This document shows positions 1,080 to 31,870 of a stretch of DNA of 64,000 nt, piece after piece. The notes beneath the pieces are model-generated. The model made no database searches. It saw nothing but the letters and a program-made list of their open reading frames with translations, and was not told the origin of the DNA. Origin of the DNA: Desulfatiglandales bacterium (GTDB lineage Bacteria > Desulfobacterota > DSM-4660 > Desulfatiglandales > Desulfatiglandaceae); contig OY762721.1 in the NCBI GenBank assembly GCA_963666345.1, positions 3,616,001 to 3,680,000 on the forward strand, read 5' to 3'. The number at the start of each line of letters is the position of its first letter. Positions within the stretch are counted from its first letter, which is position 1. The translations under genes and the position numbers were made by a program.

Positions 1080-1093
1080 AAAAAGGAGATGCC

Positions 1094-15661: not shown

Positions 15662-16921
15662 ATGAAGGGCAAGAATGTTATACTGATCACAATGGATGAA
15701 GTGCGCCATGACCATTTGAGTTGTTACGGATACACTAGAATAAATACTCCAAATTTGGACTATTTTGCGCATGATGGTGTCCTTTTTGAAACGGTCGCTT
15801 CTACAACCTGCTTTACTCCGATCAGTCATGCCACAATTTTGACGGGAGTTTACCCTAGTAAACACAATATGAGGGATCCTTTTTCTATGCCTGAATGGAA
15901 AATGATATCGGAAATTTTCAAGGAAAATGGATACGCTACAGCCGGTTTTGTTGGAGTTAATCTTATTGGGAAGGCAAACGGTTTTGACAAAGGTTTCCTG
16001 ACATTTGATGAACCTAAGCATGAAGAGGTCTGGAAAATTTCAGACTTTGCTGGAGATGATAGAGGTGAACTACTTTGGGGTAATTGGTGGATTCCACGTA
16101 TGCTGGAGTGGGTTAGATTTGTGGATAAACCGTTTTTCATATGGTGCCACTATTTCGATGTGCATCAAGCTGCAGAGAATATTTTATTGGAACTAGGTAA
16201 GATCAAGGAAGGAGTCATGCCCGAATACGGCTACTATGATCCAAAAATTGAATATATGGATAAGGCATTTTTCGGTCCTTTAAGGGAAGTGCTTTCCGAC
16301 CTTCAAATCGAAGATGAAACTACAGTTTTGATTACCTCTGACCACGGTACGAATCTTGAAGAACACGAGGTCCCTCCTTTCCCTCATCTGGATTTGGTCT
16401 ATCCACAGCATACAACTATGTATGATTGTGACTTGTTAGTCCCTCTTATTATAAAAGATATGGACGTCCCCAAGAATAAAGTGATCCCAGGAATGGTCCG
16501 AACAGTAGATATAGTGCCAACCTTACTCGATCTGGCGGGCATGGCTATTCCTGATGACTTAGATGGGGTATCGTTATGCTCATTTATTAAAAATGGAAAG
16601 GCGGAAGGACTGCTGGCATATGCTGAGGAGCTTTATGAGAAAAGAGGGCCAGGGGATTTTCAGGCAATTCGTGATGATTTGCATAAGTATATAATAGATC
16701 ATCGGAATGGTGGGCAGGAAGAATTTTACGATATAAAATCAGATCCAGTCGAGAAAACCAATTTAATGGATTCTTTATCAAAAAACCAAGAAAATATTTT
16801 AACGAATTGGAGAAATATTTGCGAAGAATACAGACCTCGAAAAGATTCTACTTTTAAAATGGACAATGAGGTAAAGGAAAAACTAACAGAAAGATTACAA
16901 ATGCTTGGATATATAGAATAA
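15662..16921 (+). CDS. sulfatase-like hydrolase (alkaline phosphatase superfamily), non-canonical motif
   Basis: NVILITMDEVR, TPISHATILTG, HYFDVH, SDHG, C-terminal LQMLGY; GGAGG RBS before ATG 15662. Confidence 0.85.
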   Translation: MKGKNVILITMDEVRHDHLSCYGYTRINTPNLDYFAHDGVLFETVASTTCFTPISHATILTGVYPSKHNMRDPFSMPEWKMISEIFKENGYATAGFVGVNLIGKANGFDKGFLTFDEPKHEEVWKISDFAGDDRGELLWGNWWIPRMLEWVRFVDKPFFIWCHYFDVHQAAENILLELGKIKEGVMPEYGYYDPKIEYMDKAFFGPLREVLSDLQIEDETTVLITSDHGTNLEEHEVPPFPHLDLVYPQHTTMYDCDLLVPLIIKDMDVPKNKVIPGMVRTVDIVPTLLDLAGMAIPDDLDGVSLCSFIKNGKAEGLLAYAEELYEKRGPGDFQAIRDDLHKYIIDHRNGGQEEFYDIKSDPVEKTNLMDSLSKNQENILTNWRNICEEYRPRKDSTFKMDNEVKEKLTERLQMLGYIE

Positions 16922-17103
16922 GAATATGGTGAAAGAATTATAACTGCAAAAGGTGCTAATAGGTGGAATGTTTATTAAGTATTCACAAAATGAAGAATAT
17001 CGTAATAAGGGGGTGATGCTAAAGCGCTTTATGAATTGGCTAAATGACAGTTAATAATTATTAAAGAGCCTGCACATTTGGCACAGGAAAAGGAGGTTTA
17101 AGC

Positions 17104-18165
17104 ATGGAAACGATGATTTCTGATAGAGGAAGTGGAAAGAGAAGTTTGGCTACTCTTGTTATTGTAATTCTTCTGTTGTTTGCGTTCAGTGTTACCTCAT
17201 TCGCAGGTCAAAAAGTTAAATTTGTTTATTCCAGTGTTCATATGGGATATCTGCCAAGAATTGTAGCCTTGGAGAATGATTTTTTTACTCAGGAAGGTTT
17301 GGAGGTTGAGGCTATAAATATTCCAGGTGGGTCCAAGGCAGCTGCAGCATTGTTGGGTGGAAGTGCGGACATTGTAAATCTTGCATATTTTCATGCTCTG
17401 AAGGCAGCCCGAAAAGGATTTGATGTGGTAGCCTTTGGCTGTCCGCTAAATCAGTGGCCTTTGGCATATTTGATGAAAGCAGAGATGATGGAAAAAAAGG
17501 GGATTACTGTCCAGTCAAGTATTGATGACAAAATACATGCAATGAAAGGCTTGGTTGTAGGATGCACATCACCTGGAAGCGGTACCGACTTAATCCCGCG
17601 CGCTTTTCTAAAAAATAGAGGTATTGATCCAGCTACTGAGGTAAAAATGGTGCCATTCGGAAAATGGAAAGCAGGGGTGGCTGCATTTGAAAAGGGCAAG
17701 ATTGATATATATCAATGGGTCTCTCCGATTCCTGAATTGCTTGAACAAAAGGGAACTGGAAAAATCTTATTCAGCATGGCTCGAGGCGATGTGCCGGAAT
17801 TTGATGGATATATGTGGGACAGCTATTTTACTACAAGAGAATATATGGACAAAAACCCTGAGGTGTTGGTTGCCTTCACCAAAGCAATAATAAAAGCAAT
17901 GGATTACATTCACAGTAATAAAGAAGGCACAATGAAAATTATTGCCAAGACATGGAAAGAGGCTGGCCCTGAACTTCTTGACGCAGCCTATGAAAATATA
18001 AACCGTGCTGTACCGAAGGATCCAAGACTTACAAAGGCCGGCTGGGAAATAAATATGAAGCTGCATTTTTCTGATGCAAAAGGAGTCGAAAAAGAAAGGA
18101 TAGCCTACGAAAAGACGGCAACAAATGAATTTGTGGAAAAGGCTTTGAAGGAATTAGGTAGGTGA
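17104..18165 (+). CDS. ABC transporter substrate-binding protein, NitT/TauT (SsuA/THI5-like)
   Basis: Signal peptide, FFTQEGLEVE, GGSKAAAALLGGSAD, GCTSPGSGTD. Confidence 0.85.
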   Translation: METMISDRGSGKRSLATLVIVILLLFAFSVTSFAGQKVKFVYSSVHMGYLPRIVALENDFFTQEGLEVEAINIPGGSKAAAALLGGSADIVNLAYFHALKAARKGFDVVAFGCPLNQWPLAYLMKAEMMEKKGITVQSSIDDKIHAMKGLVVGCTSPGSGTDLIPRAFLKNRGIDPATEVKMVPFGKWKAGVAAFEKGKIDIYQWVSPIPELLEQKGTGKILFSMARGDVPEFDGYMWDSYFTTREYMDKNPEVLVAFTKAIIKAMDYIHSNKEGTMKIIAKTWKEAGPELLDAAYENINRAVPKDPRLTKAGWEINMKLHFSDAKGVEKERIAYEKTATNEFVEKALKELGR

Positions 18166-18171
18166 ACAATA

Positions 18172-18207
18172 GGCGGAAGTGATTGCCATATCAGATTCTC
18201 TTCCGCC
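18172..18207 (+). terminator. intergenic stem-loop after the SBP gene
   Basis: GGCGGAAG ... CTTCCGCC inverted repeat. Confidence 0.45.
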
Positions 18208-18320
18208 ATTATTCCAATTAGAGACTGAAAATTTGTACTGCATTTAATTGTTCAAAACTAAAAAGAAATAGCAACACTTTAAGGTCAAATATTACAAAAA
18301 ATTAACTTCGTAGTTTATCG

Positions 18321-19175
18321 ATGGTACGAAAGAAAAGCATGGAATCAAAAGCATTACATGGTCACGATCCCTTAAACCCCCGAATACTTAGAAGTAATTT
18401 TGAAAGTAATTTGCGAAAACGGTCTCGAAATTTATGGGGCTTAAGGTTAGTTTTTGGTATTGGGATCATTTCGTTTTGGGAATTGGCGTCAAGATGTCTT
18501 ATCGATCCCTTTTGGATTAGCATGCCTTCTAATATTGTGGTTAGGCTGAGGCAATGGTATTTTACAGGATTCATATTTGAACATTTATGGATTACTTTAG
18601 CGGAAATGGCAGTCGGTTTCGCAATTGGATTAGTGTTGGCGGTAGCCGCAGGCCTTTTGTTGGGAACGAGAAAGAGCCTTGCTGAGGTATTGGATCCTTT
18701 TATGATGGCCATATGGAGCGTTCCGGGTATTGTGTTTGGCCCCCTTTTTATCCTCTACTTTGGGATTGGATTTACAGCCAAAATGGTTCTTGTAGCTGTA
18801 ACGGTATTTTTCCTGATTTTCTTTAATACCTTTACTGGGGTTAGAGAGGTGAATCAGGAGTGGATAAATGTAATGCGAATTATGGGCGCTTCCAATGGCA
18901 AGATATTTAGAAAAGTTGTTTTACCTGCTTCAGCTGTTTGGATTTTTGCAAGCTTTAAAAACGCAATTCCCTATACAATGGTCGCTGCAGTAGTGGGAGA
19001 ATTGATTGCCTCACAAAAAGGGCTCGGATTTTTAATTGAAGATGCCTCAAGCGTTATGGATACCACTGGAGTTTTTGCGGGGCTTTTTAACTTAATGGTT
19101 ATAGGATTGATTCTTAATCAAGTGGTTGAACATATCGAAAAAAAGGTTTTGCATTGGAAAAACAGAGAACAATGA
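18321..19175 (+). CDS. ABC transporter permease (NitT/TauT family)
   Basis: Hydrophobic helices, RIMGAS..IFRKVVLP EAA-like loop, AVVGELIAS..GLG. Confidence 0.88.
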   Translation: MVRKKSMESKALHGHDPLNPRILRSNFESNLRKRSRNLWGLRLVFGIGIISFWELASRCLIDPFWISMPSNIVVRLRQWYFTGFIFEHLWITLAEMAVGFAIGLVLAVAAGLLLGTRKSLAEVLDPFMMAIWSVPGIVFGPLFILYFGIGFTAKMVLVAVTVFFLIFFNTFTGVREVNQEWINVMRIMGASNGKIFRKVVLPASAVWIFASFKNAIPYTMVAAVVGELIASQKGLGFLIEDASSVMDTTGVFAGLFNLMVIGLILNQVVEHIEKKVLHWKNREQ

Positions 19176-19969
19176 ATACTAAAAAAGTCATCGATGTACA
19201 AAATGTCTATAAGTGGTTTATTACCCGCGCGAACGATATACTTGCCTTGGAAGACTGTTCGTTGACAATTAAAAAGGGTGAATTCTTTGCCTTTGTAGGA
19301 CCTTCCGGTTGCGGTAAATCAACTCTTTTGAACATAATTGCTGGTCTTATGTTTCCGACAGCAGGAAGAGTTATCTATGAGGGGGAAGAACTTAAAACTG
19401 TGAATCAAAAAGTTGGGTATATTACGCAGCACGATTCAATTTTTCCATGGCTTACTGTCGAAGAAAATGTCGGGATATCATTAGAAGTAAGAAAAAATGC
19501 TAAAAGCTACGATATCAATCCTTCAGATAAAATTCATGAATTCATAAAATTAGTAGGATTAGAAGGTTTTGAAAAGCATTTTCCTTCCCAGCTCTCTGGA
19601 GGTATGAGGAAACGAGTTGGACTAGCTAGAACGTTAATCTATGAACCACAAGCTTTGCTTCTTGATGAACCATTCGGCGCTTTAGATGCACAGTTAAAAT
19701 TAGTTCTACAAGGAGAACTTCTTAAAATATGGAATGCAACGAAAAAAACAATGGTTTTTGTAACACATGATTTGGGAGAGGCGATTGCTCTAGCTGATTA
19801 TGTTGTAGTTTTCACCGGTCGGCCAGGGAAAATTAAACTTATCAAAAAGATTCCTATACCAAGACCAAGAGATGTGTTTCAGATTAGGTTTTCCAAGGAA
19901 TTCGGCAACCTTTATGAGGAAATATGGGAGTCTCTGCAGCAAGAGGTCGCAAAAGGTGAAGAATTATGA
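19172..19969 (+). CDS. ABC transporter ATP-binding protein (NitT/TauT family)
   Basis: GPSGCGKST, LSGGMRKR, LLLDEPFGALD, VTHD; ATGA overlap with the upstream gene. Confidence 0.92.
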   Translation: MNTKKVIDVQNVYKWFITRANDILALEDCSLTIKKGEFFAFVGPSGCGKSTLLNIIAGLMFPTAGRVIYEGEELKTVNQKVGYITQHDSIFPWLTVEENVGISLEVRKNAKSYDINPSDKIHEFIKLVGLEGFEKHFPSQLSGGMRKRVGLARTLIYEPQALLLDEPFGALDAQLKLVLQGELLKIWNATKKTMVFVTHDLGEAIALADYVVVFTGRPGKIKLIKKIPIPRPRDVFQIRFSKEFGNLYEEIWESLQQEVAKGEEL

Positions 19970-20799
19970 GCAGTAAGAGTTCAATGGAAGTCCATGGTAT
20001 AGACCTTGAGGCCTTAAGGAAAGCTTCCCTGCCATCTTTTTATCAGCGCTATATCAAGATCCAGATCTATCGATTGATTTTACTTGGATGTTTCCTTTTA
20101 GTTTGGCAGCTGATTTCAGGCTGGATTATCCCTGCCAACTGGATTGCAAGTCCAATTCTTCTATTTGAAAAGGGATGGGAGTGGATATCAACGGGATTAC
20201 TTTTTTACCACTTGAAAGCAACGATTATTGAAATGGTGATAGGCGCGGTTTTGGGTACTTTTTTAGCTGTTTTTACGGGCTTTATTATGGGATCAAGCAA
20301 GCTGATAGCAGATGCTCTTCTACCATATGTCGCAGCAGTATATGGAATCCCAAGGATTGCTATGGCCCCGCTTTTTGTAATCTGGTTCGGCATTGGGATC
20401 ACTTCGAAGGTTGCCCTAGTAACGGTAGTAGTCTATTTCCTGGTATTCTTCAATGCCTTTGTAGGGGCGCGGAATGTTGAAGAGATTTATATTAACACTT
20501 TGCGTATTATGGGGGCATCTCGATTTAATATATTGAGAAGAGTCGTGCTTCCCCATGCAGCAGGATGGGTTTTCAGCGGTCTACGCCTTGCATTGCCTCG
20601 AGCTTTAATAGCTGCAGTGGTTGGAGAAATAATTTCATCGAACAAAGGCCTTGGATATCTAATCGAAGAATCAGGTGGTTTTTTTGATGTAGCTGGAATT
20701 TTGGTTGCAGTGAGTGTGCTGGCAGTATTGGGAGTTTTTCTCAATTCAATTGTAAATTGGATGGAAGTTAGAACCAATAGATACAGATTTATAGAATAA
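19966..20799 (+). CDS. second ABC transporter permease (NitT/TauT family)
   Basis: IPRIAMAPLFVIWFGIG, RIMGAS, AVVGEIISS..GLG. Confidence 0.88.
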   Translation: MSSKSSMEVHGIDLEALRKASLPSFYQRYIKIQIYRLILLGCFLLVWQLISGWIIPANWIASPILLFEKGWEWISTGLLFYHLKATIIEMVIGAVLGTFLAVFTGFIMGSSKLIADALLPYVAAVYGIPRIAMAPLFVIWFGIGITSKVALVTVVVYFLVFFNAFVGARNVEEIYINTLRIMGASRFNILRRVVLPHAAGWVFSGLRLALPRALIAAVVGEIISSNKGLGYLIEESGGFFDVAGILVAVSVLAVLGVFLNSIVNWMEVRTNRYRFIE

Positions 20800-21061
20800 T
20801 ACAATCACAGAACATACAGACTTATTAAAATAACTTTTAGAAGTGAAGCCAGTGTAAAAATATTTCATATAAATTAGGTATGAACTCTGTAAGTCATAAT
20901 AGTAATTTTTATAGTAGAAATGAGCAGTGATTAAGATAAATGTTACTTTGGTTTTATGATGAATATTAACAATAATTAGACTTGACTTTGTGATCTATGG
21001 ATATATGTCCAGATGATCAATATGGTGAGTCAGTTTAGAAAAGTAAAGATGTAGGTATGCA

Positions 21062-21880
21062 ATGAAGTTCTATGATTTAGAAAAAAGAAGTCCAATTCCG
21101 TTATATGTTCAGTTAGCTGATATTATTAAACGAAATATTCGTGAAGGCATTTTGAAGGAAAATGACCTAATTCCTTCTGAAGCACGCCTGATGGAAAAGT
21201 ATAAAATAAGTAGGATTACTGTAAGAAATGCCTTGCTCAGGCTTGAACATGACAGGGATATATTCAAGGTCCACGGACGAGGATCTTTTGTGGCTGCAAA
21301 AGAGAATATTATAATTACCTCGCCATTTTATTTCTTTAAAAGTCAGATGAGTAAATTAGGGATTGATATTACCGAGGAATTGATTGAATTCGAAAACGTT
21401 TATCCAACAGAAAGGGTTAGAAGTGAACTCAACCTCAAACCGGATGAGTTGGTCACAAAGGTAAAGCGAATAATGAAGATGGGCAATGAATCAATTGGCC
21501 TGAGAAGCTTTTTTGTGCCTCATAAGTTTGGAAATAAAATGAGATATGACGATGTAGAAAATCGTTCAATGCTAGATTATCTGAATGAGAATCCAGCAAC
21601 AAAAATAGCAAAAATGGAGGTTAAGGTTCAGGCTGCTGTAATCGCAGATGGTGATGCTGAAGTAATGGGCGTCGATAACAACAGCACTGTTTTAGTTCGC
21701 GGTGTAATATTTTGGACGCGGTTAGGTGTTCCTATCATGTCTGGAAGAGTTCTTTATTTGGCTCAGCATGCAATGTTTAAAATGCATCTTAATATTGAAA
21801 CTATTCCTATGGATGTTTCTGTTGAAGAAAGGCCCTTGGTAATTCCAGCGGAACATGATCAATTAGATATATTAAAATGA
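21062..21880 (+). CDS. GntR family (HutC/UTRA) transcriptional regulator
   Basis: PLYVQL, IPSEARL, SRITVRNAL, GRGSFV; UTRA-like C-terminus. Confidence 0.88.
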   Translation: MKFYDLEKRSPIPLYVQLADIIKRNIREGILKENDLIPSEARLMEKYKISRITVRNALLRLEHDRDIFKVHGRGSFVAAKENIIITSPFYFFKSQMSKLGIDITEELIEFENVYPTERVRSELNLKPDELVTKVKRIMKMGNESIGLRSFFVPHKFGNKMRYDDVENRSMLDYLNENPATKIAKMEVKVQAAVIADGDAEVMGVDNNSTVLVRGVIFWTRLGVPIMSGRVLYLAQHAMFKMHLNIETIPMDVSVEERPLVIPAEHDQLDILK

Positions 21881-21987
21881 TATTTTAATTTGTGAGAGCA
21901 TACACACAATTATTATGTGCTGACCAAACGGCTGCTTAAGGACACCATAATAATAAGTAAGAGTTAAGATGGGCCGGAGATAGTGAA

Positions 21988-23196
21988 ATGAAAAATGTAA
22001 TTTTACTGACAGTCGATGCATTGAGAAAAGATGCTTTGAATAATAGCTACAGTAGACGTCTTACGCCATTTTTGAAATCGATAGATAATCATATAATTAA
22101 GTTTGAAAATTGTTATTCCTCTGGGCCATATACACAAGCAGCTTTTCCCGGAATTCTGACTTCATCTTATTATCTGGAATACGGTAGACAGAAAGTGCTT
22201 TCCAAAAAGAGAGTTTTAGTTTCTGAAATACTTCAAAATAACGATATCGAAACAGCAGGCATACATTCAAATGCATATCTTTCAGATTATTTTGGATGGA
22301 ATAGAGGATGGGATTATTTTTATGATTCAATGGAAGACGAAGTTAATGAAAAACTTCCTTATATCGAAGCTAAAATGATAAACAAAAAAATAAATACATG
22401 GATAGAGAACAGAGATAAACCTGCGAAGCCATTTTTCCTTTGGGCTCATTATATGGATATTCATGAACCATATATTCCATCTAAAAATAGCCTTCAAGTT
22501 ATGAATGATTCTTTAAAATATGATGAAGATGAGATGCTTTCTTTGTTTACTGATGTTTTGTTAAAAAGGGATGTTTCCAATAAAACAAATGTTGAGAGTC
22601 TTCAGATGCTTTATCTGGCTCAACTAGTTGAACTTGACAGGGCAATTGAGGAGCTTTTCAAAAACTTAGAGGAAAATGGTTATCTGGAAAACACCGTTAT
22701 CATATTTACTTCCGATCATGGTGATGAATTCAACGAGCACGGTGGGTTGTCTCATGATGGTAAAATGTTCAATGAGCTATTAAGAGTCCCATTATTTGTA
22801 TATGACAAAGCTATTATGAAAAAAGAAATATGTGATACCCTTGTAACAACCGTTGATATACCACCAACAATTATAAAATTATTTGAACTAGAAGCAATCA
22901 AGAAGTTTGAAGGTGTTTCCCTTTTACCAACTTCAAACTATACAAATAAAGGAATATATAGTGAAGCAGTAGATAAACATGGAAGTCGAGAAACCGGTGA
23001 CGAAGAGGAAATATATTGCTATGTAGAAAACGGTTATAAACTTATTTATCAGGAATCAAATAAAGTTTGGAGATTGTATGATTTAAAAAAAGATCCGGAA
23101 GAAATGGAAAACATATTCGAAAAATCAGAGCGATCTGGGTATATGAAAGAAAAGTTAATCCCAAGGATTAAAAGATGGAAATATGACAGACAATGA
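21988..23196 (+). CDS. sulfatase-like hydrolase, non-canonical motif
   Basis: NVILLTVDALR, YTQAAFPGILTS, HYMDIHEPY, SDHGDEFNEHG. Confidence 0.85.
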   Translation: MKNVILLTVDALRKDALNNSYSRRLTPFLKSIDNHIIKFENCYSSGPYTQAAFPGILTSSYYLEYGRQKVLSKKRVLVSEILQNNDIETAGIHSNAYLSDYFGWNRGWDYFYDSMEDEVNEKLPYIEAKMINKKINTWIENRDKPAKPFFLWAHYMDIHEPYIPSKNSLQVMNDSLKYDEDEMLSLFTDVLLKRDVSNKTNVESLQMLYLAQLVELDRAIEELFKNLEENGYLENTVIIFTSDHGDEFNEHGGLSHDGKMFNELLRVPLFVYDKAIMKKEICDTLVTTVDIPPTIIKLFELEAIKKFEGVSLLPTSNYTNKGIYSEAVDKHGSRETGDEEEIYCYVENGYKLIYQESNKVWRLYDLKKDPEEMENIFEKSERSGYMKEKLIPRIKRWKYDRQ

Positions 23197-23235
23197 TAGG
23201 TAGTGATTGATTTATTAGCAATCCTGGAGGGCAAG

Positions 23236-24678: not shown

Positions 24679-24786
24679 TTTTGAAGCAGGCGATGCTCAC
24701 TAGATAAAAAGTTCTATAAGAACTGAATCTTCAAAAATCTAATGATAAAGTGGTAACCTTAAAGGTTTTATAATGTGGAGGTTTTT

Positions 24787-25434
24787 ATGAATAGTGCCGA
24801 GATATGCAATGATGTGATAGCGAATAATTCAGAGAAACTAGTGGTAGATATTAGAAAAGGACTAGAATTAGGTTTAAGCCCTGATGATATCTTGAATGAA
24901 GGATTGATTAAGGCTATGGATATTGTAGGCGTAAAATATTCAGAAGGTGAACTGTTTGTTCCTGAGATGTTGCAAGCAGCAATCACCATGAAGCAAGGGC
25001 TAAATATTTTAAAACCAATGCTAGTTGATTCTGGAGCTTCTGAAAAATGCAAAATTGTGATTGGTAGTGTTAAAGGAGATCTTCATGATATCGGCAAAAA
25101 TTTGGTTGCAATGATGTTGGAAGGAGCTGGATTTGAAGTGTTTGATTTAGGAGTTGATGTAACACCTGAAAAGTTTGTTAATAAAGTTGCTGAACATCAA
25201 GCACAAATTTGTGCAATGTCAGCTCTTTTGACGACTACAATGCCAGGAATGAGAGACACTATAAATCTTATAAAAAAGGAATTTGATGATAGCTCAGTAA
25301 AAACTGTTATTGGTGGAGCGCCGGTATCCCAAAAATATGCAGATGATATTGGAGCTGATTGCTTTGCCTCAGATGCGGTTGCAGCTGTTGATGCAGTAAA
25401 GGAGATAATGAATATTAGTAAGTCATTACAATGA
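24787..25434 (+). CDS. corrinoid (cobalamin-binding) methyl-accepting protein
   Basis: ELFVPEMLQAA cap domain, GDLHDIGKNLV B12 motif, SALLTTTM, IGGAP. Confidence 0.92.
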   Translation: MNSAEICNDVIANNSEKLVVDIRKGLELGLSPDDILNEGLIKAMDIVGVKYSEGELFVPEMLQAAITMKQGLNILKPMLVDSGASEKCKIVIGSVKGDLHDIGKNLVAMMLEGAGFEVFDLGVDVTPEKFVNKVAEHQAQICAMSALLTTTMPGMRDTINLIKKEFDDSSVKTVIGGAPVSQKYADDIGADCFASDAVAAVDAVKEIMNISKSLQ

Positions 25435-25522
25435 TATAATTAAATTATAACAGATAGATCTCATTGAGAAATATGATAAATATAGTATTGGCAACTTATT
25501 TTTAACAGTGAGGAGAATGTTA

Positions 25523-26350
25523 ATGCTCGAAAAAAATAGAATTACAGATTTGGAAGATAAAATTGAAAAAGCAAAAGAAATATTTGATGAGGCTTTCAAA
25601 CGATTTTCTTCTGATGATATGAGAATTATTTGGTCGGGTGGAAAAGACAGCACACTTACTCTTTGGATTTGTTGTGAATACTGCAAAGAGAAGAGCCTCC
25701 AGTTACCTAAAGTGTTTACTATAGATGAGGGAGATAGCTTTGATGAGATTGAGAACTTTCTTAAAAAATATGAAAATGAATGGAAATTGAATCTTGACTG
25801 GGGAATAAATAGAGATGTCTTGGAGGCCTGTGGTTACCGGTTAAATGGAGATGTTAAAGTTAATGAACTCAATGAAAGAAATAGAGCTGAGATAAAACGC
25901 ATTGGCTTTGATTTAGAGTCGTTTCCATTTGAGGCAGAATCCTATGTGGGAAATCATTTAATGAAAACTGTAGTGTTTAATACCTATCTTGAAAGTAATG
26001 GTATAGAAGCCGTGTTCCAAGGCCTTCGGTGGGATGAACAACCTGCAAGAAAAAACGATCCGTACACAGAAGAAGTGGCTGGTGGTGAGATGACACCCCC
26101 GCATGTAAGATATCGACCTATTCTTCACTTTACAGAGAGAGATGTGTGGGATACCACTTTTCATTTTAAAATTCCTTTCTGCAAACTATATGAAGAAGGA
26201 TACCGTTCGCTCGGTGCGAAGACTACTAGTCAAAAATCATCTAATAACCCAGCATGGGAACAGGATCTGGAAAATACAGTGGAGCGTGCAGGAAGGCGCC
26301 AGGATAAAGAAAAAACCATGGCTCGACTGAGAATGCTAGGCTATATGTAA
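25523..26350 (+). CDS. PAPS-reductase superfamily protein, CysD-like (sulfate adenylyltransferase subunit 2)
   Basis: PP-loop WSGGKDS, GLRWDEQPAR, PILHFTE, GYRSLG, ERAGRRQDKE; lacks the ECG(L/I)H tail of CysH. Confidence 0.7.
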   Translation: MLEKNRITDLEDKIEKAKEIFDEAFKRFSSDDMRIIWSGGKDSTLTLWICCEYCKEKSLQLPKVFTIDEGDSFDEIENFLKKYENEWKLNLDWGINRDVLEACGYRLNGDVKVNELNERNRAEIKRIGFDLESFPFEAESYVGNHLMKTVVFNTYLESNGIEAVFQGLRWDEQPARKNDPYTEEVAGGEMTPPHVRYRPILHFTERDVWDTTFHFKIPFCKLYEEGYRSLGAKTTSQKSSNNPAWEQDLENTVERAGRRQDKEKTMARLRMLGYM

Positions 26351-26404
26351 TTAAACTATTTTAATAAAAACAGCCGATCTGTAGAAGGGATTGAAAAACA
26401 TTAG

Positions 26405-26893
26405 ATGAACGCAGAAAAGGTGGTATATAAAGTGTTCAACGAATTAAATATAACTTTCGTTGTGCATGAACATCCACCTGTTTATACAGTTGAAGAAGCA
26501 CAGAGATATGCAAGCCAGATAGAAGGTATGCATTGTAAGAATCTGTTCCTGAGAAACAAAAAGGGCAGTCAGCATTATCTTCTCACTTCAAAGCATGACA
26601 GATCGATAAAACTGGATTATGTTGCAAAAAGCCTTGGTGAAAAGCACTTAAGCTTTGCATCTGAAGAGCGGCTCTTCAGATATCTAGGTGTTAAAACAGG
26701 TAGCGTTTCTCCTTTAGCTCTTATAAACGACAAGGACCTTGGCACGATTCTTTTAATAGATAACTCCTTCCAATCAAAGCCTAAACTAAATTTTCACCCC
26801 AATGTTAATGATAAGACTGTGACTATTTCCTTTGAAGATTTTATGAAATTTATCAACCATTGTGGAAATCGATTTCACATCTTTCAATTTTGA
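26405..26893 (+). CDS. YbaK/ProXp-ala (PrdX) aminoacyl-tRNA editing domain protein
   Basis: HEHPPVYTVEEA, KNLFLRNKK, LSFAS, GSVSP, FHPNVN. Confidence 0.88.
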   Translation: MNAEKVVYKVFNELNITFVVHEHPPVYTVEEAQRYASQIEGMHCKNLFLRNKKGSQHYLLTSKHDRSIKLDYVAKSLGEKHLSFASEERLFRYLGVKTGSVSPLALINDKDLGTILLIDNSFQSKPKLNFHPNVNDKTVTISFEDFMKFINHCGNRFHIFQF

Positions 26894-26973
26894 TCAATTG
26901 GCGACTTCAGCAGAGATTTGAAAAGCATACTTCGTTGATCCTGATGATGAATTATTGATAGAAGGAACTAAAA

Positions 26974-28008
26974 ATGGAAAAGATGAAAGCGCTTGTAAAA
27001 GCAAAACCTGAGCCTGGGTTATGGCTTGAAGAGGTAGAGGTTCCTGATATCGGGATAAATGATGTACTCATCAAGATAGAAAAGACCGCAATATGCGGAA
27101 CCGATGTCCATATATACAACTGGAACGACTGGGCAAAAAAAACTATCCCGGTCCCAATGCAAACGGGACATGAGTTCGTGGGACGCATCGCTGAAATCGG
27201 AGCGAATGTTCACGATTTTAAACCCGGCGATCTTGTATCGGGCGAGGGCCACGTTGTATGCGGCCGCTGCAGAAACTGCCTTGCAGGCCGCAGGCACCTG
27301 TGTATGAACACAAGCGGAGTCGGAGTCAACAGACCTGGTGCCTTTGCCGAATATCTCTCGATTCCGGTTACCAATGTATGGTACTGCGATCCTAAGATTC
27401 CCACAGATATCATTTCATGTTTCGACCCCCTGGGAAATGCGACTCATACGGCCCTTTCCTTTGATCTTCTGGGAGAAGACGTGCTTATTACAGGAGCAGG
27501 TCCCATCGGATGTATGGCAACGGCAATCGCAAGGCACGCCGGTGCCAGGTATGTGGTGGTTACCGACATAAATGAATACCGCCTTGAGCTTGGCAGAAAA
27601 ATGGGAGCGACTCTTGCCATAAACGTGAGTCATGAGAAAATAGAAGAGGCTCAGAAACGGCTCTGCATGAAGGAAGGATTCGACGTAGGTCTCGAGATGT
27701 CGGGTAACCCCGCGGCCCTCACCTCCATGCTTGAAAACATGTGTCACGGCGGAAAGATCGCCATGCTCGGGCTCATGCCTGACAACACCCCCATAAACTG
27801 GGACCTGGTCGTGTTCAACGGAATTACCATCAAGGGCATCTACGGAAGGGAGATGTATGAAACCTGGTACAAGATGACCTCCATGATTCAGACCGGTCTG
27901 GACATATCACCTGTTATTACCCATCATTTCCCATACACTGAATTCAGAGACGGGTTTGAGGTTATGAGATCGGGTAATTCAGGCAAAGTCATACTTAATT
28001 GGGAATAG
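26974..28008 (+). CDS. tdh: L-threonine 3-dehydrogenase
   Basis: [53 protein letters not shown]. Confidence 0.95.
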
Positions 28009-28031
28009 AGGATATATAGGCGAAGATTTTG

Positions 28032-29942
28032 ATGAGTACTGAGAAGCTGGATACAGCATTAGACAGAGAGATTGAAATCCTGCAACAAGAAGGCCGTGCC
28101 AAACCTCCCGAAAGGATCATTACCGACTACATCGCTCCGAGCGGCAAAAATGGCCCCAGATATAGATTGAATGGGGTTGATGGTCAGTTTTATCAGGATG
28201 AATTCGAACAGCTATCTTTCCCTTTCAAACCACGAGGACCTGGCAGAAGCCGCCGATATCGCAACAAAGAGGTTCGGGGTGGGTCCCGGAGCGGTCAGAT
28301 TCATCGACGGGACGTTCGAAGCCCATATTACCCTTGAAAAACGAATCGCCCGGTTTGTGAAAAAGCCATGTGCAAAGATCTTCAATTCGGCCTACACCTC
28401 AAACTGCGGACTGGCCCTGGCCATTTCAAACAAAAAAACCTTCTGGGTAGGCGACCAGCTCAACCACAACAGTATTATCAGGGCGATGAGGATCGCAAAC
28501 ATCCCTGGCGCAAACAAAAAAATCTATGAACACAACAACATGCACTCCCTTGAGGAATGCCTCACTCAGGTACCGGAGGAGGCGGAAAGGGTGATAATCA
28601 TCTTTGACGGCATATTCAGCATGCGCGGGGACTATGCACCGATAGATGAGATACAGAAAACCGCCCTTCGCTTTGACGACAAATTCAAAGAAGGAGTGAT
28701 AACGGTTGTCGACGACTCACACGGTATAGGCGCATACGGACAAACCGGAAGGGGTACGGCCGAATACTCAGGCGCCAGTCCTGACGTGATAATAGGAACA
28801 TTCGGAAAGGCGTTCGGGGTAAACGGCGGTTTTATCGCGGCTAGCGACAGTGTTATAGAGGCGGTCAGACAGAAGGCGGACACATATATCTATACCAATC
28901 CTCTTGGTGTGGCTGATTGTGCCGCTGCCATAAAGGCGATAGACATCTGCGACAGCGCCGAAGGAGCAGGGCTTTTGCTGAACCTGAGGGAAAGGATCAC
29001 ACAATTCAGAAATGGAATAGAAGGATTGGGTCTTGAATCTATCCCAGGTCCTCATCCGGTTGTTCCGGTGCTTGTAAGGGATACGGATAAGGCGCACAGC
29101 ATGGTCAGGTTTCTCTTTGAGAGCGCCGATTAAAACCGGCAAGAAGTAGGGACTGAAAGTGTCCCATGATGAAGGGTTAGCCACCCGCATCAGCCTTGAG
29201 TCATGCGCTGGCAATGGTAACATTGTCGGCGAAGCATTGACAGGGGAAAGTGCAGGCTGAGTATTGAGCCTCGTAATAGACATAAACCCAAGCGCCGATG
29301 TGCTTCAAAGACACAGAAGGCAGTATCTGCAGGTCCGATATGGTGAGGAGATGCAGGGCTTGGCGGGGTCGGAGACCTCATACATGCACGGAAGCTTGTT
29401 GCGCGGGAATCGGGAGGCCCTGTAACTGGCCTTGATTAGATTGCAAAAGGTCCGTACTGAAAATCCCAAGGGAGTAAAGCAGTAATGAATGGTTACAGGG
29501 AGTCTGACAGCCCCATAGTATCTAGGAAGCCTTCGAACAAGACAGGCGACAACAAGTCTGAGGCGGAGAAGGTGGAGAAAAGGGGGTTGGCCAAGGGGAA
29601 TTCGGTAGAGCGAAACAAGGGCCGGGCACTGAACCGGGGAACCTTGCAAAGTGAGCTTACGAGAATACGGCAGAGTATGTTTACCAATAACTTTGTGCGT
29701 CATTACCCGAGGCAGGAGAGCAGTGCATTAGCAGTGCACGTCACGCCAGCGGCGTGATGCGGGGGGTGCCGAGCAATCGGCATTCCTACCGCGATCAGGG
29801 AATTCTTGTTGTCGGACTCACTTTTCCCGTTGTTCCCAAGGGTGATGAAACCTTGAGATTCCAGCTCAACGCGGCCCACACAGAGGCCGATGTCGACTAT
29901 GTGCTTAACATGATTTCCGAAGTGCTGAAACAGGAAGGATGA
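28032..29942 (+). pseudogene. kbl: glycine C-acetyltransferase (2-amino-3-ketobutyrate CoA ligase), frameshifted and intron-interrupted
   Basis: NSYLSL, DQLNHNSII, DGIFSMRG, VDDSHG, GTFGKAFG; extra T at 28188-28191; C-terminal exon GILVVGLTFPVVPKG resumes after 29795; follows tdh. Confidence 0.85.
29121..29795 (+). mobile_element. group II intron, ORF-less (IEP internally deleted), degenerate; resembles bacterial class E
   Basis: Starts GAGCG (cf. GUGYG), ends with D6-like GGGGGGTGCCGAGCAATCGGCATTCCTACCGCGAT; IEP start MNGYRESDSPIV..RGLAKGN fused to IEP end RHYPRQE, no RT domain. Confidence 0.85.
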
Positions 29943-29969
29943 ACACTAATCGTTAATTTAGTGATAGTC

Positions 29970-30600
29970 ATATACCTCCGGCATAGCCGGAGGCTTGAAA
30001 TATGTGAACCGCTCAAAGCGGTTGTAAAATCAAGGGCCACCTCAAAGGTGGCGGCTATTTAATATAAACTGAGTTGATCGAGTCTTCGATCCTCTCTTTC
30101 TTGTTCTTTGATATATTTGCGGATTGAATCCTCATCTTTACCTACAGTTGAAACATGGAAACCCCTGGCCCAAAACTTTTGACCTGTAAAATTCTTTCTG
30201 CGGCCAAAATACTGTCTCGCAATATGGATGGCACTTTTCCCCTTGATGAACCCTACCACTTGTGAAACCGAATATTTTGGTGGTATAGACAGCAACATAT
30301 GCGCGTGATCCGGCATCATATGGCCTTCCAACACTTCACAGTCTCGCCTCTTCGCCAGTTCATGGAAAACTTCACCCAAGTATTTACGCAAATCACCATA
30401 CATCTCCTTTTTTCGGTATTTCGGTATCCATGTTAGATGATATTTGCATTCCCATTTCGTATGACTTAAGCTGTTTACGTTGTTCATTGAAAGCCTCTCT
30501 TTCTGTGAATTTTGAGCGGTTCACTTTAGAGGGGCTTTCATATATTCCCGGAATTGTCAAACTCTGGGAGTCTCCCCGGCACAGCCGGGGGTTTACCCTG
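29970..30600 (-). mobile_element. IS200-like element (tnpA only), ends approximate
   Basis: Subterminal hairpins CCTCCGGC-ATA-GCCGGAGG (29975-29993) and CCCCGGC-ACA-GCCGGGG (30574-30590); inverted 14-mer at 30004-30017 and 30511-30524. Confidence 0.85.
30059..30487 (-). CDS. tnpA: IS200/IS605 family Y1 (HUH) transposase
   Basis: CKYHLTWIPKYR, DHAHML HUH motif, KGKSA, FWARG, IRKYIKEQ catalytic Tyr. Confidence 0.93.
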   Translation of the reverse strand: MNNVNSLSHTKWECKYHLTWIPKYRKKEMYGDLRKYLGEVFHELAKRRDCEVLEGHMMPDHAHMLLSIPPKYSVSQVVGFIKGKSAIHIARQYFGRRKNFTGQKFWARGFHVSTVGKDEDSIRKYIKEQEREDRRLDQLSLY

Positions 30601-30703
30601 GATTAATTAGTTGTATTTTAGGCGTTTTGAAATTAATGATATTGGCAAGTTTGAGCTATGTTTTATTATTGAAAGTGCGAAGAATGGAATTGGAGCTTAA
30701 AAA

Positions 30704-31870
30704 ATGGATCATCTTATTGAACCTCATGGAGAGAAAGAACAGTTAATGCCACTCTGTCTGGAGGGAAAAGACTGTAAGAATGAGATAAAAAAGGCAAACA
30801 GTCTAAGAAAAATGAGAATTACGTCACGGGAAACCTGTGATATTATAATGATGGGAATTGGTGCTTTTAGTCCTTTAGCAGGTTTTATGAATAAACTTGA
30901 TTGGGAAGGGGTTTGTGATGATTTCACTATGTCAGATGGGACTTTTTGGCCTATTCCCATTACTCTTTCGACAGATGACGAAGTTATCCGGGAAGGAGAC
31001 GAAATTTCGCTCGTAGATGATGAGTCTAACACAATTGTCGCCACGATGAGGATATCGGAAAAATATTGTATTGATAAGGTGCATGAATGCCAACGTATTT
31101 ATTATACTACGGATCAACAACACCCTGGTGTCGCTAAGGTAATTTCGCAAGGAAAATACAATCTTGGTGGGCCGGTAAAAGTAGTGAGCGAAGGTTTATA
31201 TCCAGACCAATTCAAGGGTATTTATCAAACGCCTATGGAGGCTAGGGAAATATTTAACAGGTTTGGTTGGAAACGGGTATCAGCTATGCAATTGCGAAAT
31301 CCTATGCATCGTTCCCATGAGTATTTGGCAAAGATAGCGTTAGAGATTTCGGATGGAATATATATTCATCAACCCCTTGGTAAGCTAAAAGATGGTGATA
31401 TCCCTGCAAATGTTCGCGTAAAAGCTGTGCAGGCAGTATTGGATAATTATTTTGCAAAAGGAACTACCATTCAAGGGGGTTACCCGATGGAGATGCGTTA
31501 CGCTGGGCCTAGGGAAGCCCTTTTGCACGCTATCATTCGTCAGAATTATGGTTGCAGCAATCTGGTAATTGGGCGAGACCACGCAGGTGTAGGCAGTTAT
31601 TATGGTCCCTTTGATTCCCAGCGAATATTTGATGAAATCCCAAGGGGAGCATTAAAGTGCAAAAATCTTAATATTGATGTGTCATTTTATTGCTATAAAT
31701 GTGGTACCATGGCTTCAGTTAAAACTTGTCCTCATGGCAAGGAAAATCATCTCATCTTGTCTGGAACAAAAGTGAGGGAAATATTGTCCCGAGGTGGTAA
31801 GTTACCTCCAGAATTTTCAAGACCTGAAGTTGTAGAGATTTTAGAACAATATTACAAGGGTATTTCGTAG
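30704..31870 (+). CDS. sat: sulfate adenylyltransferase (ATP sulfurylase)
   Basis: [57 protein letters not shown]. Confidence 0.95.

Follow-up and report, generated by a model that had tools for sequence, protein, structure and literature searches.

The window, a 64,000-nt stretch from the 4.16-Mb genome of a marine, sulfate-reducing member of the Desulfobacterales (GC 47.95%), carries a block of 12 low-GC genes, all co-directional on the + strand and spaced at −22 to 262 bp (Table 1). Every gene named in the original prediction was found in place and in this orientation, and the AT-rich block it described is real and unusual, as its genes have a GC content of 0.32–0.41 and a GC3 of 0.25–0.37, against 48% GC for the genome, where a GC content under 40% is found in only 1.6% of 5-kb windows. 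The island, foreign in composition, interleaves a B12-dependent methyl-harvesting pair (MttB and its corrinoid protein) and an importer with an undescribed set of sulfatase-like and sulfate-activating genes. Shared GC3, co-direction and tight gaps suggest that this interleaved order probably came from one donor, and the same low GC3 in all island genes suggests that the arrangement is older than its arrival in the host genome. AP1 starts 6 nt downstream of a GGAGGG ribosome-binding site, and the 16-mer 5′ of it is a possible candidate operator for the GntR/UTRA regulator; it occurs once in the window, and at least one match arose in 9 of 100 shuffles, which on its own is not significant.

Table 1. 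Genes and sequence features of the island and of the segment inserted ahead of Sat.
Feature	Position	Strand	Evidence
Promoter-like TTGACA and single, partly palindromic 16-mer	15500..15531	+	Sequence upstream of AP1
AP1, cytoplasmic sulfatase-family enzyme	15662..16921	+	PF00884 115.7 bits
Substrate-binding protein (SBP) of NitT/TauT-type ABC importer	17104..18165	+	NMT1_2 80.9 bits; NMT1
Permease of ABC importer	18321..19175	+	BPD_transp_1
ATPase of ABC importer	19154..19969	+	ABC_tran
Permease of ABC importer	19966..20799	+	BPD_transp_1
GntR/UTRA (HutC-type) regulator	21062..21880	+	PF00392 and PF07702
AP2, cytoplasmic sulfatase-family enzyme	21988..23196	+	PF00884 139.5 bits
Non-pyrrolysine MttB-superfamily methyltransferase	23236..24678	+	PF06253 283.7 bits; no in-frame stop
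Cognate corrinoid protein	24787..25434	+	B12-binding and B12-binding_2
PAPS-reductase-fold PP-loop protein, conserved AP2 partner	25508..26350	+	PF01507 83.7 bits
YbaK/ProX-like protein, tRNA_edit domain	26405..26893	+	PF04073 96.1 bits
L-threonine 3-dehydrogenase (Tdh)	26974..28008	+	NF003808 574.8 bits (cut-off 380)
Kbl/BioF-family gene, broken (Kbl′)	28171..29906	+	NF005394 246.7 bits (cut-off 460)
IS200/IS605 Y1 transposase	30059..30487	−	PF01797 128.4 bits; NF033573 137.4 bits (cut-off 55)
Sat, second, island-borne ATP sulfurylase	30704..31870	+	NF003166 478.6 bits (cut-off 387)

The YbaK-like gene (GC3 0.34) is the last low-GC gene ahead of the insertion that, as predicted, split Sat from the rest of the island at a later time. 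The Tdh segment is native-like in composition and is not island DNA: GC3 is 0.545 for Tdh and 0.54–0.58 for Tdh, Kbl′ and orf132 together, vs 0.33 for Sat, and contigs of relatives match only 26970–29922, from 26970 onwards, at ~89% identity. The Kbl/BioF-family gene is broken by a further 678-bp insertion (29120–29797) carrying orf132 on the − strand, so that residues 49–347 align to 28204–29124 and residues 346–383 to 29793–29906 in a different frame; contigs of X1, X3 and X4 contain the joint 29119→29798, which skips these 678 bases. Sat has its QLRNP, HRSH and GRD motifs, fits the island genes in GC3 and is 68% identical to the genome's other Sat, located at 704 kb.

The reading of two sulfatase-like hydrolases held for the PF00884 fold and failed at the active site, where AP1 and AP2, which share 25% identity, each have a Thr in place of the formylglycine Cys/Ser, and alignment to solved sulfatases revealed no formylglycine CxPxR motif in either. 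AP1 reads T-P-I-S-H at this site, with the Thr opposite the formylglycine Cys of 6hr5 and the His opposite its Arg. In AP2 the nucleophile position is Thr49, within G-P-Y-T-Q-A-A-F, and Asp10, the DHG and HEPY motifs and the Lys of D-G-K are retained; among solved structures it comes closest to formylglycine sulfatases (5g2v, 8e-25), whose nucleophile the Thr faces in the alignment. This Thr and the metal- and anion-binding residues are invariant across 7 orthologues, and of the 38 AP/PP-loop fusion proteins that cover the nucleophile column, 35 have a Thr there. Both enzymes also match PF01663 (Phosphodiest). Within the AP superfamily a Thr nucleophile typically marks enzymes that transfer phosphoryl groups; no characterised Thr-nucleophile member is known to do otherwise or has been proven to be a sulfatase, which counts against a sulfate ester as substrate. 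A literature search found no paper on sulfuryl transfer by a Thr-type AP-superfamily enzyme.

The PP-loop protein had been called CysD-like, a resemblance that stands at the level of the family and no further, as the protein scores below every CysD and CysH cut-off (63.6 bits vs 195 for the CysD-type model) and profile scoring found no CysN in the genome above cut-off. Its predicted model (pLDDT 88.9) is about as close to FMN adenylyltransferase/FAD synthase as to APS and PAPS reductases and to CysD in Foldseek (E 2e-13 to 1e-7, ~20% identity), and an Atlas feature search returned NodP/CysD-like clusters. In 16 homologues the S/T-G-G-K-D-S loop is present and the C-terminus is strongly conserved.

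The prediction that Sat forms a set with the sulfatase-like enzymes and the PAPS-reductase-fold protein was borne out in other genomes. The PP-loop gene lies immediately 3′ of AP2 in 8 of 8 related loci, either adjacent or fused (L122), and an AP domain is fused to 41 of the 42 longer PP-loop homologues. In 7 of 21 module loci the next gene downstream is Sat, with orthologues (57–64% identity) directly 3′ of the PP-loop gene in L120 and L128–L132. Genes for ASST-like proteins, TauE and importers are frequent company: ASST-like proteins were matched by Pfam in 9 of 14 class-A loci, and by tblastn only in a tenth, L133, while TauE occurs in 3 loci and a sulphur-transport protein and an APS kinase in 1 locus each. 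PP-loop homologues also occur within anabolic glycan clusters with APS kinase, annotated sulfotransferase and agl genes, and plasmids carrying a homologue also carry sulfotransferase or glycan genes. L131 has GntR/UTRA genes too, and L127 and L132 contain weaker matches. Elsewhere the module adjoins substrate-specific genes that differ from locus to locus (HpaB, a pyrogallol-hydroxytransferase-like protein, Tct or TRAP importers), which suggests that it is a portable sulfate-ester unit.

A NitT/TauT-type ABC importer accompanies the AP2/PP-loop unit only in this window. Its SBP falls below the family cut-offs (SsuA_fam 70.1 bits vs 163.5; TauA 30.8 vs 304) and is closest among solved proteins to 3qsl (4e-23), TauA reaching only 8.6e-5. 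NitT/TauT-family SBPs are known to bind sulfonates and other anions or zwitterions, which counts for a zwitterionic sulfate-ester substrate. SBP orthologues occur in metagenomes at 58–80% identity, and the 208 other genomes of the order contain no match at E ≤ 1e-30. The permease, ATPase and permease genes have overlapping ends, and their best NCBIfam names (SaoP/SaoA, TauC, SsuC) are all under cut-off. The predicted link between importer and MttB/corrinoid genes recurs by sequence in G551, where 67–68% identical permease and ATPase orthologues adjoin an SBP orthologue, lie beside MttB′/corrinoid genes and have a 47% identical GntR/UTRA orthologue nearby; two short metagenome contigs probably carry SBP and clade MttB orthologues as well, judged only by a match in contig number and length. 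The G551 locus contains no AP or PP-loop gene.

Judged by its sequence, the window MttB is a member of an uncharacterised non-Pyl clade (TIGR02369 398.9 bits vs a cut-off of 525), with an Ala opposite the Pyl of M. barkeri MttB and a Phe aligned opposite Arg312 of MtgB. An Arg312-type residue is reported to be conserved in all MttB members with known, acidic quaternary-amine substrates (PMC13080624), and its absence here counts against an acidic, esterified substrate. The corrinoid protein has the DLHDIG motif (MtgC_2 195.5 bits vs 370). More than 100 relatives of the MttB are present in metagenomes at 57–73% identity; those of its clade adjoin Kbl/Tdh, TMADH-like flavoproteins with AOR, peptidases and oligopeptide importers, amino-acid and amine contexts rather than sulfur ones, which weakens the proposed sulfur link of MttB. 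The full gene combination was not found elsewhere, an outcome that had been named beforehand as one that would refute the prediction. MttB is absent from all 21 other module loci, and 101 other MttB loci contain none of the AP2, PP-loop, Sat and SBP genes (100 plus L143; 21 at 58–74% identity, many being short contigs). At L022, the closest MttB relative with downstream sequence (74%), what comes after the corrinoid gene is not a PP-loop gene but unrelated to the module. Only in this window does the MttB/corrinoid pair lie inside the AP2/PP-loop module, exactly between two genes that are intact.

We tentatively propose, as a possibility that we would not put at even chances, that 15662–26893 together with Sat is one horizontally acquired catabolic island acting on a small zwitterionic N-methylated compound with an O-sulfate ester. 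Among natural compounds choline-O-sulfate is the obvious choice, plausible yet unproven, and naming it is a guess of about the same standing. The compound would be taken up by the ABC importer under control of the GntR/UTRA regulator, and MttB would move one N-methyl group to the corrinoid protein, from which a methyltransferase would pass it on with the help of a reductive activase, both encoded elsewhere in the genome. The sulfuryl group would be handled by the two Thr-type enzymes, the PP-loop protein and the dedicated Sat, and either released or moved into the adenylyl-sulfate pool of the sulfate reducer; both this direction and the order of steps are ones that we infer. Action of both gene sets on one substrate is favoured by their common GC3, the position of the MttB pair between AP2 and PP-loop genes, the sulfur-related company of the module, the importer orthologues beside MttB/corrinoid genes, and the genome's two RACo/RamA-type activases and three pterin-binding proteins. 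It also has a precedent in MthB of E. limosum, which demethylates an O-esterified choline, phosphocholine, and leaves the ester group to a partner enzyme (PMC12155760). Against it count the missing co-occurrence in both directions, L022, the G551 locus, the contexts of the MttB clade, and the island's lack of a methyl-corrinoid:THF methyltransferase or activase. The methylated-sulfate-ester pathway as first predicted keeps its sulfate module and its importer–MttB link, and is weakened by the missing co-occurrence, the missing formylglycine motif and the MttB without the Arg. Identical fragments are present in a run labelled marine sediment metagenome, and as sulfate is usually plentiful in such a habitat, the rationale of a sulfate source is weakened too.

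The main rival, which we consider somewhat unlikely, holds that the island is a mosaic of a methylamine unit (importer, GntR, MttB, corrinoid protein) and an independent Thr-type sulfatase-fold/PP-loop/Sat module with its own substrate. The two units do occur apart, in the module and MttB loci surveyed and in G551, and module loci are served by Tct or TRAP importers with no MttB; rearrangement is also visible at the locus (the IS200 element, the 678-bp insertion in Kbl, the native Tdh–Kbl segment inside the island), and an MttB without the Arg that an acidic, esterified substrate would call for fits a separate function. However, the A-B-A-B-A gene order demands several insertions, each sparing orientation and reading frames and one splitting an otherwise invariant AP2/PP-loop pair; the uniform low GC3 places the arrangement before its arrival in this genome; and the module would be left without an importer of its own, which most class-A loci have.

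Two further readings change the chemistry of the substrate. A hydroxylated quaternary amine such as choline might be imported and O-sulfated inside the cell before demethylation, with Sat and the PP-loop protein activating sulfate, AP2 acting as transferase, AP1 recycling or removing the sulfuryl group and MttB demethylating the resulting acidic amine. This would mirror MthK/MthB, where MthB requires prior esterification of choline and MthK recycles the ester group (PMC12155760). The anabolic glycan clusters point away from hydrolysis and towards sulfate activation and transfer, Sat is a canonical ATP sulfurylase and the ASST-like partners are transferases by family; but the SBP family suggests a ligand that is anionic or zwitterionic, not cationic, the MttB is without the acid-group-binding Arg of characterised members, the reaction costs ATP, and the literature search found no report of sulfuryl transfer by a Thr-type enzyme. 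We regard sulfation as improbable. Least probable, and in our view a long shot, is the import of a phosphorylated methylamine (phosphocholine or glycerophosphocholine, for example) with AP1 and AP2 as phosphatases or phosphodiesterases and the link to Sat incidental. The Thr nucleophile, the PF01663 matches and a weak, below-cut-off Phosphonate-bd match of the SBP (E 4.5e-4) would suit such a substrate, but the partners of AP2 (PP-loop protein, Sat, ASST-like proteins, TauE) are sulfur-related and its closest solved relatives are sulfatases, not phosphodiesterases. Phosphocholine is a proven MttB-superfamily substrate (PMC12155760), whereas the reported conservation of the Arg should by its wording include the phosphocholine enzyme (PMC13080624), and the window MttB does not have it.

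Several known systems resemble parts of the sulfate-ester pathway proposed here. Type I formylglycine sulfatases, including the choline-O-sulfatase BetC (6fny, 6g5z, 7pth), have the PF00884 fold in common with AP1 and AP2, along with the N-terminal metal-binding Asp and the SDHG and G-K motifs, and are their nearest solved relatives by sequence, but differ in having C/S-x-P-x-R where AP1 and AP2 have the Thr; AP1 and AP2 also reach only 78–91 bits against the choline sulfatase model TIGR03417 (cut-off 433), and they are cytoplasmic proteins of a type that has a PP-loop protein as partner or is joined to one in a fusion. CysD of the CysDN ATP sulfurylase (1zun) and other PAPS-reductase-fold enzymes have the PP-loop and fold in common with the window protein, which in contrast is under all curated cut-offs, shows no redox Cys motif and has an AP-superfamily or ASST-like protein as its constant partner. 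The glycine betaine system MtgB/MtgC of Desulfitobacterium hafniense (2qne, 9yce; PMC13080624) is of the same fold and family as the window MttB (E 4e-65), the alignment spanning residues 23–482 and pairing His348 of MtgB with His362, and in both cases a corrinoid protein adjoins, the one here resembling MtgC while falling under the cut-off for MtgC models. In the HMMER alignment, the betaine-site residues Tyr97, Arg312 and Phe356 of MtgB are replaced by Ser, Phe and Gly. The MthK/MthB/MthC/MthA system of Eubacterium limosum (Jiang et al. 2025, PMC12155760) differs in having a kinase where the window has two Thr-type sulfatase-fold enzymes, the PP-loop protein and Sat, in its MthA-type methyltransferase, which the window cluster lacks, and in its MttB homologue, the window MttB being without the conserved Arg and MthB being compared by description only. 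Both have a non-Pyl MttB-superfamily enzyme with an adjacent corrinoid protein, clustered with an enzyme, in the window a putative one, for an O-ester group on the amine, and the two systems would share the logic of an esterified amino alcohol as the substrate for demethylation.

The genes that the original prediction assigned to one island are all present between 15.6 and 31.9 kb, where it had placed them, and all lie on the plus strand; the IS200 transposase gene in the same stretch is on the minus strand. The surrounding genome is a single contig of 4.16 Mb (the window being positions 3,616,001–3,680,000) with a GC content of 47.95%, and only 1.6% of its 5-kb windows fall below 40% GC. GC3 is 0.25–0.37 for the genes from AP1 to YbaK and for Sat, and 0.54–0.58 for Tdh, Kbl and orf132, a small open reading frame within the insertion described below. 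The low GC3 of the AP1-to-YbaK block therefore marks a foreign island, of which Sat is a member by composition. A run labelled marine sediment metagenome contains short contigs whose sequence is identical to the MttB and corrinoid genes.

Features of the island and its insertion, in window coordinates (AP1 and AP2, sulfatase-fold proteins; SBP, substrate-binding protein of the importer; MttB, non-Pyl methyltransferase; Sat, ATP sulfurylase)
Feature	Position	Strand	Family or profile
AP1	15662–16921	+	PF00884
SBP	17104–18165	+	NitT/TauT type
Permease / ATPase / permease	18321–20799	+	BPD_transp_1, ABC_tran
GntR/UTRA regulator	21062–21880	+	PF00392, PF07702
AP2	21988–23196	+	PF00884
MttB	23236–24678	+	PF06253
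Corrinoid protein	24787–25434	+	B12-binding domains
PAPS_reduct (PP-loop) protein	25508–26350	+	PF01507
YbaK-like	26405–26893	+	PF04073
Tdh	26974–28008	+	NF003808
Kbl-like	from 28171	+	NF005394, below cut-off
IS200 transposase	30059–30487	-	PF01797
Sat	30704–31870	+	NF003166

Sat does follow an insertion, as had been proposed, and what was inserted is native-like Tdh-Kbl DNA together with a 678-bp element and the IS200. The Kbl-like gene lies in two pieces (residues 49–347 at 28204–29124 and residues 346–383 at 29793–29906), split by the 678-bp insertion at 29120–29797. Contigs from three runs contain a joint from 29119 to 29798 that skips these 678 bases, so relatives at about 89% identity have an unbroken Kbl-like gene; the contigs of these relatives match the window between 26970 and 29922 only. 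The element bears a 132-aa ORF (minus strand, 29305–29703) with no Pfam or NCBIfam match, and it is possibly a small non-autonomous element tied to the nearby IS200. Because the MttB clade of the window often neighbours Tdh and Kbl elsewhere, we considered these two as pathway members, and dropped them given their native-like composition and the broken Kbl.

Promoter and terminator scans showed no excess over shuffled sequence (52 sites vs 51.1, and 10 vs 14.7), and operon structure is read here from gene spacing. A repeat search, a tRNA search (0 genes) and a search for an operator-like 16-mer (1 copy) revealed neither island boundaries nor a regulon. An ORF of 1286 aa (10708–14568, GC 46%) lies just upstream of the island and matched nothing in Pfam or NCBIfam at the thresholds applied. 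Two further AT-rich stretches lie in the window. The block at 1–7255 encodes two SDRs, a TMADH-like flavoprotein (2203–4152), ALAD, a ferredoxin-nitroreductase fusion and a beta-keto-acid cleavage enzyme (BKACE, 6386–7255), followed by a DDE transposase fragment (8040–8720, minus strand). The cluster at 43738–52556 encodes LacI, a histidinol-dehydrogenase-like protein, TctCBA, a sulfatase-family protein (AP3), an SDR and a 3-hydroxyacyl-CoA dehydrogenase (3HCDH, at 51588), which together with BKACE is reminiscent of carnitine-type catabolism.

Both AP1 and AP2 match the sulfatase fold PF00884 (115.7 and 139.5 bits; cut-off 25), and their closest solved relatives by sequence are formylglycine sulfatases (6hr5 for AP1, 3e-20; 5g2v for AP2, 8e-25). 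The C/S-x-P-x-R motif is absent from both, with T-P-I-S-H in AP1 and T-Q-A-A-F in AP2 at that place; in the alignments Thr faces the nucleophile Cys/Ser of solved sulfatases, and the motif Arg faces His (AP1) or Phe (AP2). Across an alignment of 54 sequences, Thr occupies the nucleophile position in all 12 unfused proteins (AP1, AP2, a third paralogue from the window and nine proteins from related loci), and among the 38 of 42 fusion proteins that cover this column it is Thr in 35, Ser in two and unclear in one. The metal/anion residues Asp10, D-H-G, H-E-P-Y and the Lys of D-G-K are invariant in seven AP2 orthologues. Neither protein reaches the cut-off for choline sulfatase (TIGR03417, 77.7 and 90.7 vs 433.45 bits) or for arylsulfatase (NF010322, 137.8 and 118.8 vs 481 bits), and because both begin directly with the catalytic domain they are predicted to be cytoplasmic. 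Judged by these residues, AP1 and AP2 are sulfatase-fold enzymes predicted to be unable to make formylglycine. The structure model of AP2 was poor (mean pLDDT 61.3, from an alignment of seven sequences). AP3 (49314–50702), a third cytoplasmic sulfatase-family protein with a relative at 42% identity in locus L116, carries T-L-P-V-R, in which Thr is the one departure from an intact C-x-P-x-R motif. The whole genome has eight PF00884 matches, and at C1:2589927–2592575 another sulfatase-family gene directly adjoins an ASST-like gene.

The gene originally described as CysD-like encodes a protein with the PP-loop motif S-G-G-K-D-S (residues 43–48), of which all 16 homologues compared keep G, K, D and S, as well as a C-terminal end strongly conserved across the same set. 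It falls below all CysD and CysH cut-offs (for CysD, NF003587 63.6 vs 195 bits and TIGR02039 32.9 vs 396.6 bits), and no protein of the genome passes the CysN cut-off of TIGR02034 (best 97.3 vs 336.1 bits). Its nearest solved relatives by sequence are FAD synthase (8.7e-10), APS reductase (3.7e-6) and CysD (4.6e-4), and an Atlas feature search gives NodP/CysD-like clusters. The predicted model is confident (pLDDT 88.9); a fold search with it gave matches of similar strength, at about 20% identity, to FMN adenylyltransferase/FAD synthase, APS/PAPS reductases and CysD, and did not separate CysD from the others. The relatives of this protein all bind an adenine nucleotide beside a sulfate or phosphate group, and PAPS-reductase-fold PP-loop protein is the safe name.

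AP2 and the PP-loop protein recur together in other genomes. AP2 orthologues at 47–56% identity occur in six other genomes, and 15 of the 209 genomes searched in the order (G000 included; the class-level search covers the same 209) match AP2 at E≤1e-20. A PP-loop orthologue (52–72% identity) comes next after AP2 in all seven fetched loci and in L127, from a phylum-level search that found the PP-loop protein in 14 of 400 other sampled genomes. In L122 they form a single 707-residue protein, and 41 of 42 longer PP-loop homologues bear an AP-superfamily domain; from the adjacency and the fusions we infer that AP2 and the PP-loop protein may bind each other. The pair of Thr-type sulfatase-fold and PP-loop proteins ranges from Desulfobacterota to haloarchaea and Patescibacteria; its two members are often fused, and Sat is often the neighbouring gene. 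The 21 loci with this module fall into two classes, A (14 loci, 52–72% identity) and B (seven loci, 42–53%). Every class A locus has an importer (Tct, TRAP or TAXI-type) together with an ASST-like beta-propeller, an AP enzyme or both, and often a GntR/UTRA regulator; the ASST-like Pfam match is present in nine of the 14 and a tenth (L133) was found by tblastn only, Sat lies directly downstream of the PP-loop gene in seven (L120, L121, L128–L132), and TauE is present in three. Class B loci lie in glycan clusters, with a Phosphodiest-type AP enzyme in 5/7 and APS kinase in 1/7. Plasmid homologues of the PP-loop protein adjoin an annotated sulfotransferase in Desulfolutivibrio and agl glycosylation genes in Natrinema.

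In L128, L130, L131 and L132 (also L120, L122–L124 and L127), ASST-like proteins of about 450 aa (arylsulfotransferase/NHL beta-propeller) stand where AP2 would, immediately before the PP-loop gene and Sat, with TctCBA and GntR/UTRA genes on the flanks; the PP-loop protein therefore partners two unrelated kinds of putative sulfuryl-transfer enzyme. ASST-like genes occur at four other places in the genome and none within the window, and a tblastn search of the window and the genome with a TauE from L120 gave no match. The Sat that follows the PP-loop gene is broken into two or three frames in L121 (7564–8254) and L128 (9415–10588), which may reflect frameshifts or assembly errors. The island Sat passes NF003166 (478.6 vs 387 bits) and bears the canonical catalytic motifs QLRNP, HRSH and GRD; it is one of two Sat genes in the genome and is 68% identical to the other.

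MttB matches PF06253 (283.7 bits) in an open frame without in-frame UAG, and Ala332 faces the Pyl position (X) of Methanosarcina barkeri MttB (7xcl), which makes it a non-Pyl member. It scores about alike against MtgB (223.6 bits) and Pyl-MttB (203.6 bits). The available text of PMC13080624 describes MtgB as holding glycine betaine via Tyr97, Phe356, Arg312 and His348, with Arg312 conserved in all members with known, acidic substrates. The window residues opposite these four are Ser, Gly, Phe327 and His362, as read from a pairwise HMMER alignment to 2qne/9yce rather than from a structure, with the 2qne chain counted at an offset of 16, which brings Y, R, H and F to their published positions. 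In this alignment the Arg equivalent to Arg312 is thus absent, Phe327 standing there, and M. barkeri MttB has Tyr at the same position. The corrinoid gene lies 96–108 bp downstream, depending on the start chosen, and its product has B12-binding domains and the cobalamin-binding motif DLHDIG. Candidates for a methylcorrinoid:THF methyltransferase or a reductive activase are absent from the island, and elsewhere in the genome there are three Pterin_bind and two RACo_C_ter matches. MttB is a member of a large uncharacterised clade that includes over 100 metagenome proteins of 57–73% identity. The genome has a second non-Pyl MttB, 35% identical and with its own corrinoid protein (C1:1536740–1538137; L021:10729–12871), and next to this pair are a sodium:solute symporter, an M20 peptidase and a protein of 280 aa that matches no family; this cluster contains no methyl-THF methyltransferase gene.

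The expectation that the whole cluster would recur elsewhere was not borne out: the complete combination was found in none of the compared loci, and AP2, PP-loop, Sat and SBP genes were present in 0 of 21 loci with an MttB 58–74% identical and in 0 of 80 loci with a more distant one. Clade MttB genes at 58–64% identity repeatedly adjoin canonical Kbl (580–645 bits) and Tdh, in L025, L030, L035 and L143 (genome G594) and in L001, which has a Tdh fragment; L035 and L143 share the order SecA-ArgJ-MttB-Kbl-Tdh, and in L092 a 32% identical MttB lies directly upstream of a Tdh 81% identical to that of the window. Five metagenome loci (L024, L026, L031, L036 and L038) have the order cyclase-like proteins, TMADH-like flavoprotein (Oxidored_FMN and Pyr_redox_2), MttB at 58–63%, a second MttB at about 40% and aldehyde:ferredoxin oxidoreductase (AOR), with a URO-D-like methyltransferase also downstream in the longer L024, L031 and L036; this arrangement looks like a putative anaerobic methylamine pathway. 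We considered the TMADH-like flavoprotein of the window as a member of the system and rejected it, its identity to the flavoproteins that adjoin MttB orthologues being only about 31%. Other neighbours in the compared MttB loci are AsnC with oligopeptide importers (L029, L034, L037) and a dipeptidase with a D-Glu-cyclase-like protein (L027, L077).

The importer offers a link between transport and MttB in another genome. SBP matches only the broader NitT/TauT (NMT1) family, below the cut-offs for SsuA (TIGR01728, 70.1 vs 163.5 bits) and TauA (TIGR01729, 30.8 vs 304.25 bits), and it has no relatives at E≤1e-30 in the 208 other genomes of the order, with relatives of 58–80% identity in metagenomes. 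G551, a genome from another family of the phylum, encodes SBP (74%), permease (67%), ATPase (68%) and permease (68%) together, with a GntR/UTRA regulator (47%) about 3.5 kb upstream of SBP and an MttB-family gene (33%) and corrinoid protein (58%) about 2.7 kb downstream of the importer; no AP or PP-loop genes are present at this locus. Two SBP and two clade MttB relatives from metagenomes match in contig statistics (four contigs, longest 13,269 bp; two contigs, longest 10,637 bp), and from these identical counts and lengths they probably lie on the same short contigs.

The gene order of the island reads A-B-A-B-A-(Y)-insertion-A, where A stands for AP1, AP2, the PP-loop protein and Sat (unit A) and B for the importer, GntR, MttB and the corrinoid protein (unit B). 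We tentatively read it as a coupled 'O-sulfated methylamine' pathway, a possible though doubtful assignment that follows the original idea of importing a methylated sulfate ester such as choline-O-sulfate and using both its methyl groups and its sulfate. This reading is favoured by the foreign composition common to both units, by the short gaps between genes and by where MttB and the corrinoid gene sit, precisely between two partners that in other loci are invariably neighbours or fused; moreover, unit A keeps sulfur-related company, and the SBP family suits sulfonate- or sulfate-bearing zwitterions. It also has a precedent in MthB, which according to the available text of PMC12155760 demethylates O-phosphorylated choline while a partner enzyme deals with the ester group. 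Weighing against one pathway are the complete absence of co-occurrence in the compared loci, the Thr nucleophiles of AP1 and AP2, the lack of Arg in MttB, the amino-acid-type contexts of its clade, and G551, which has unit-B-like genes without unit A. The main rival is a mosaic of independent units, which we consider rather unlikely. An MttB without this Arg would fit demethylation of the free amine once the ester is removed, as first proposed.

Two other readings concern the chemistry. Activation of an imported amino alcohol by sulfation is distinctly unlikely. Thr nucleophiles in this superfamily are, to our knowledge, known from phosphoryl-transfer enzymes only, and a phosphoester substrate is in our judgement very improbable, the neighbours of unit A being sulfur-related. 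For the coupled pathway we also formulated a scheme, highly unlikely as it stands, in which one O-sulfated methylammonium compound (for example choline-O-sulfate) would serve a sulfate reducer as electron donor and, at the same time, as pre-activated electron acceptor. Its N-methyl groups would be harvested by MttB with the corrinoid protein, and the Thr-type sulfatase-fold enzymes with their PP-loop partner would pass the sulfuryl group to AMP, yielding APS without hydrolysis of the ester. APS would then enter APS reductase or be converted to ATP via the dedicated Sat in reverse, and sulfuryl transfer to AMP would conserve the energy of the sulfate-ester bond.

If this AMP-transfer scheme were true, its enzyme chemistry would be new, the MttB superfamily would gain a substrate class, and energy would be conserved in a way not described before. 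Coupling of the two units, if real, would add to the carboxylated and phosphorylated quaternary amines that the MttB superfamily is known to use; characterised substrates are all acidic so far, and the window clade is without the acid-binding Arg. Such coupling would also provide a first concrete small-molecule handle on the widespread sulfatase-fold/PP-loop pair and show how sediment sulfate reducers exploit organosulfate osmolytes. If the mosaic were true, the island would still be a clean natural example of a module moving by horizontal transfer. Choline-O-sulfate has been proposed as a source of sulfate and methyl groups at the ecosystem or community level in the available portions of PMC12296737 and PMC5103831. 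Our literature searches on choline sulfate with MttB or corrinoid enzymes found no paper joining both in one cluster, and found none describing the sulfatase-fold/PP-loop module, which may itself be new enzymology. We know of no single gene cluster shown to yield both sulfate and methyl groups from choline-O-sulfate.

In comparison with known systems, AP1 and AP2 share their fold with type I formylglycine sulfatases, including the choline sulfatase BetC, whereas the C/S-x-P-x-R motif has no counterpart in them. Likewise, the PP-loop motif is common to CysD and the window protein, although the latter scores below the CysD cut-offs in a genome without a CysN above its own. Corrinoid-dependent clusters for quaternary-amine demethylation are known, and the new element is the MttB pair nested within an undescribed sulfatase-fold/PP-loop/Sat module.
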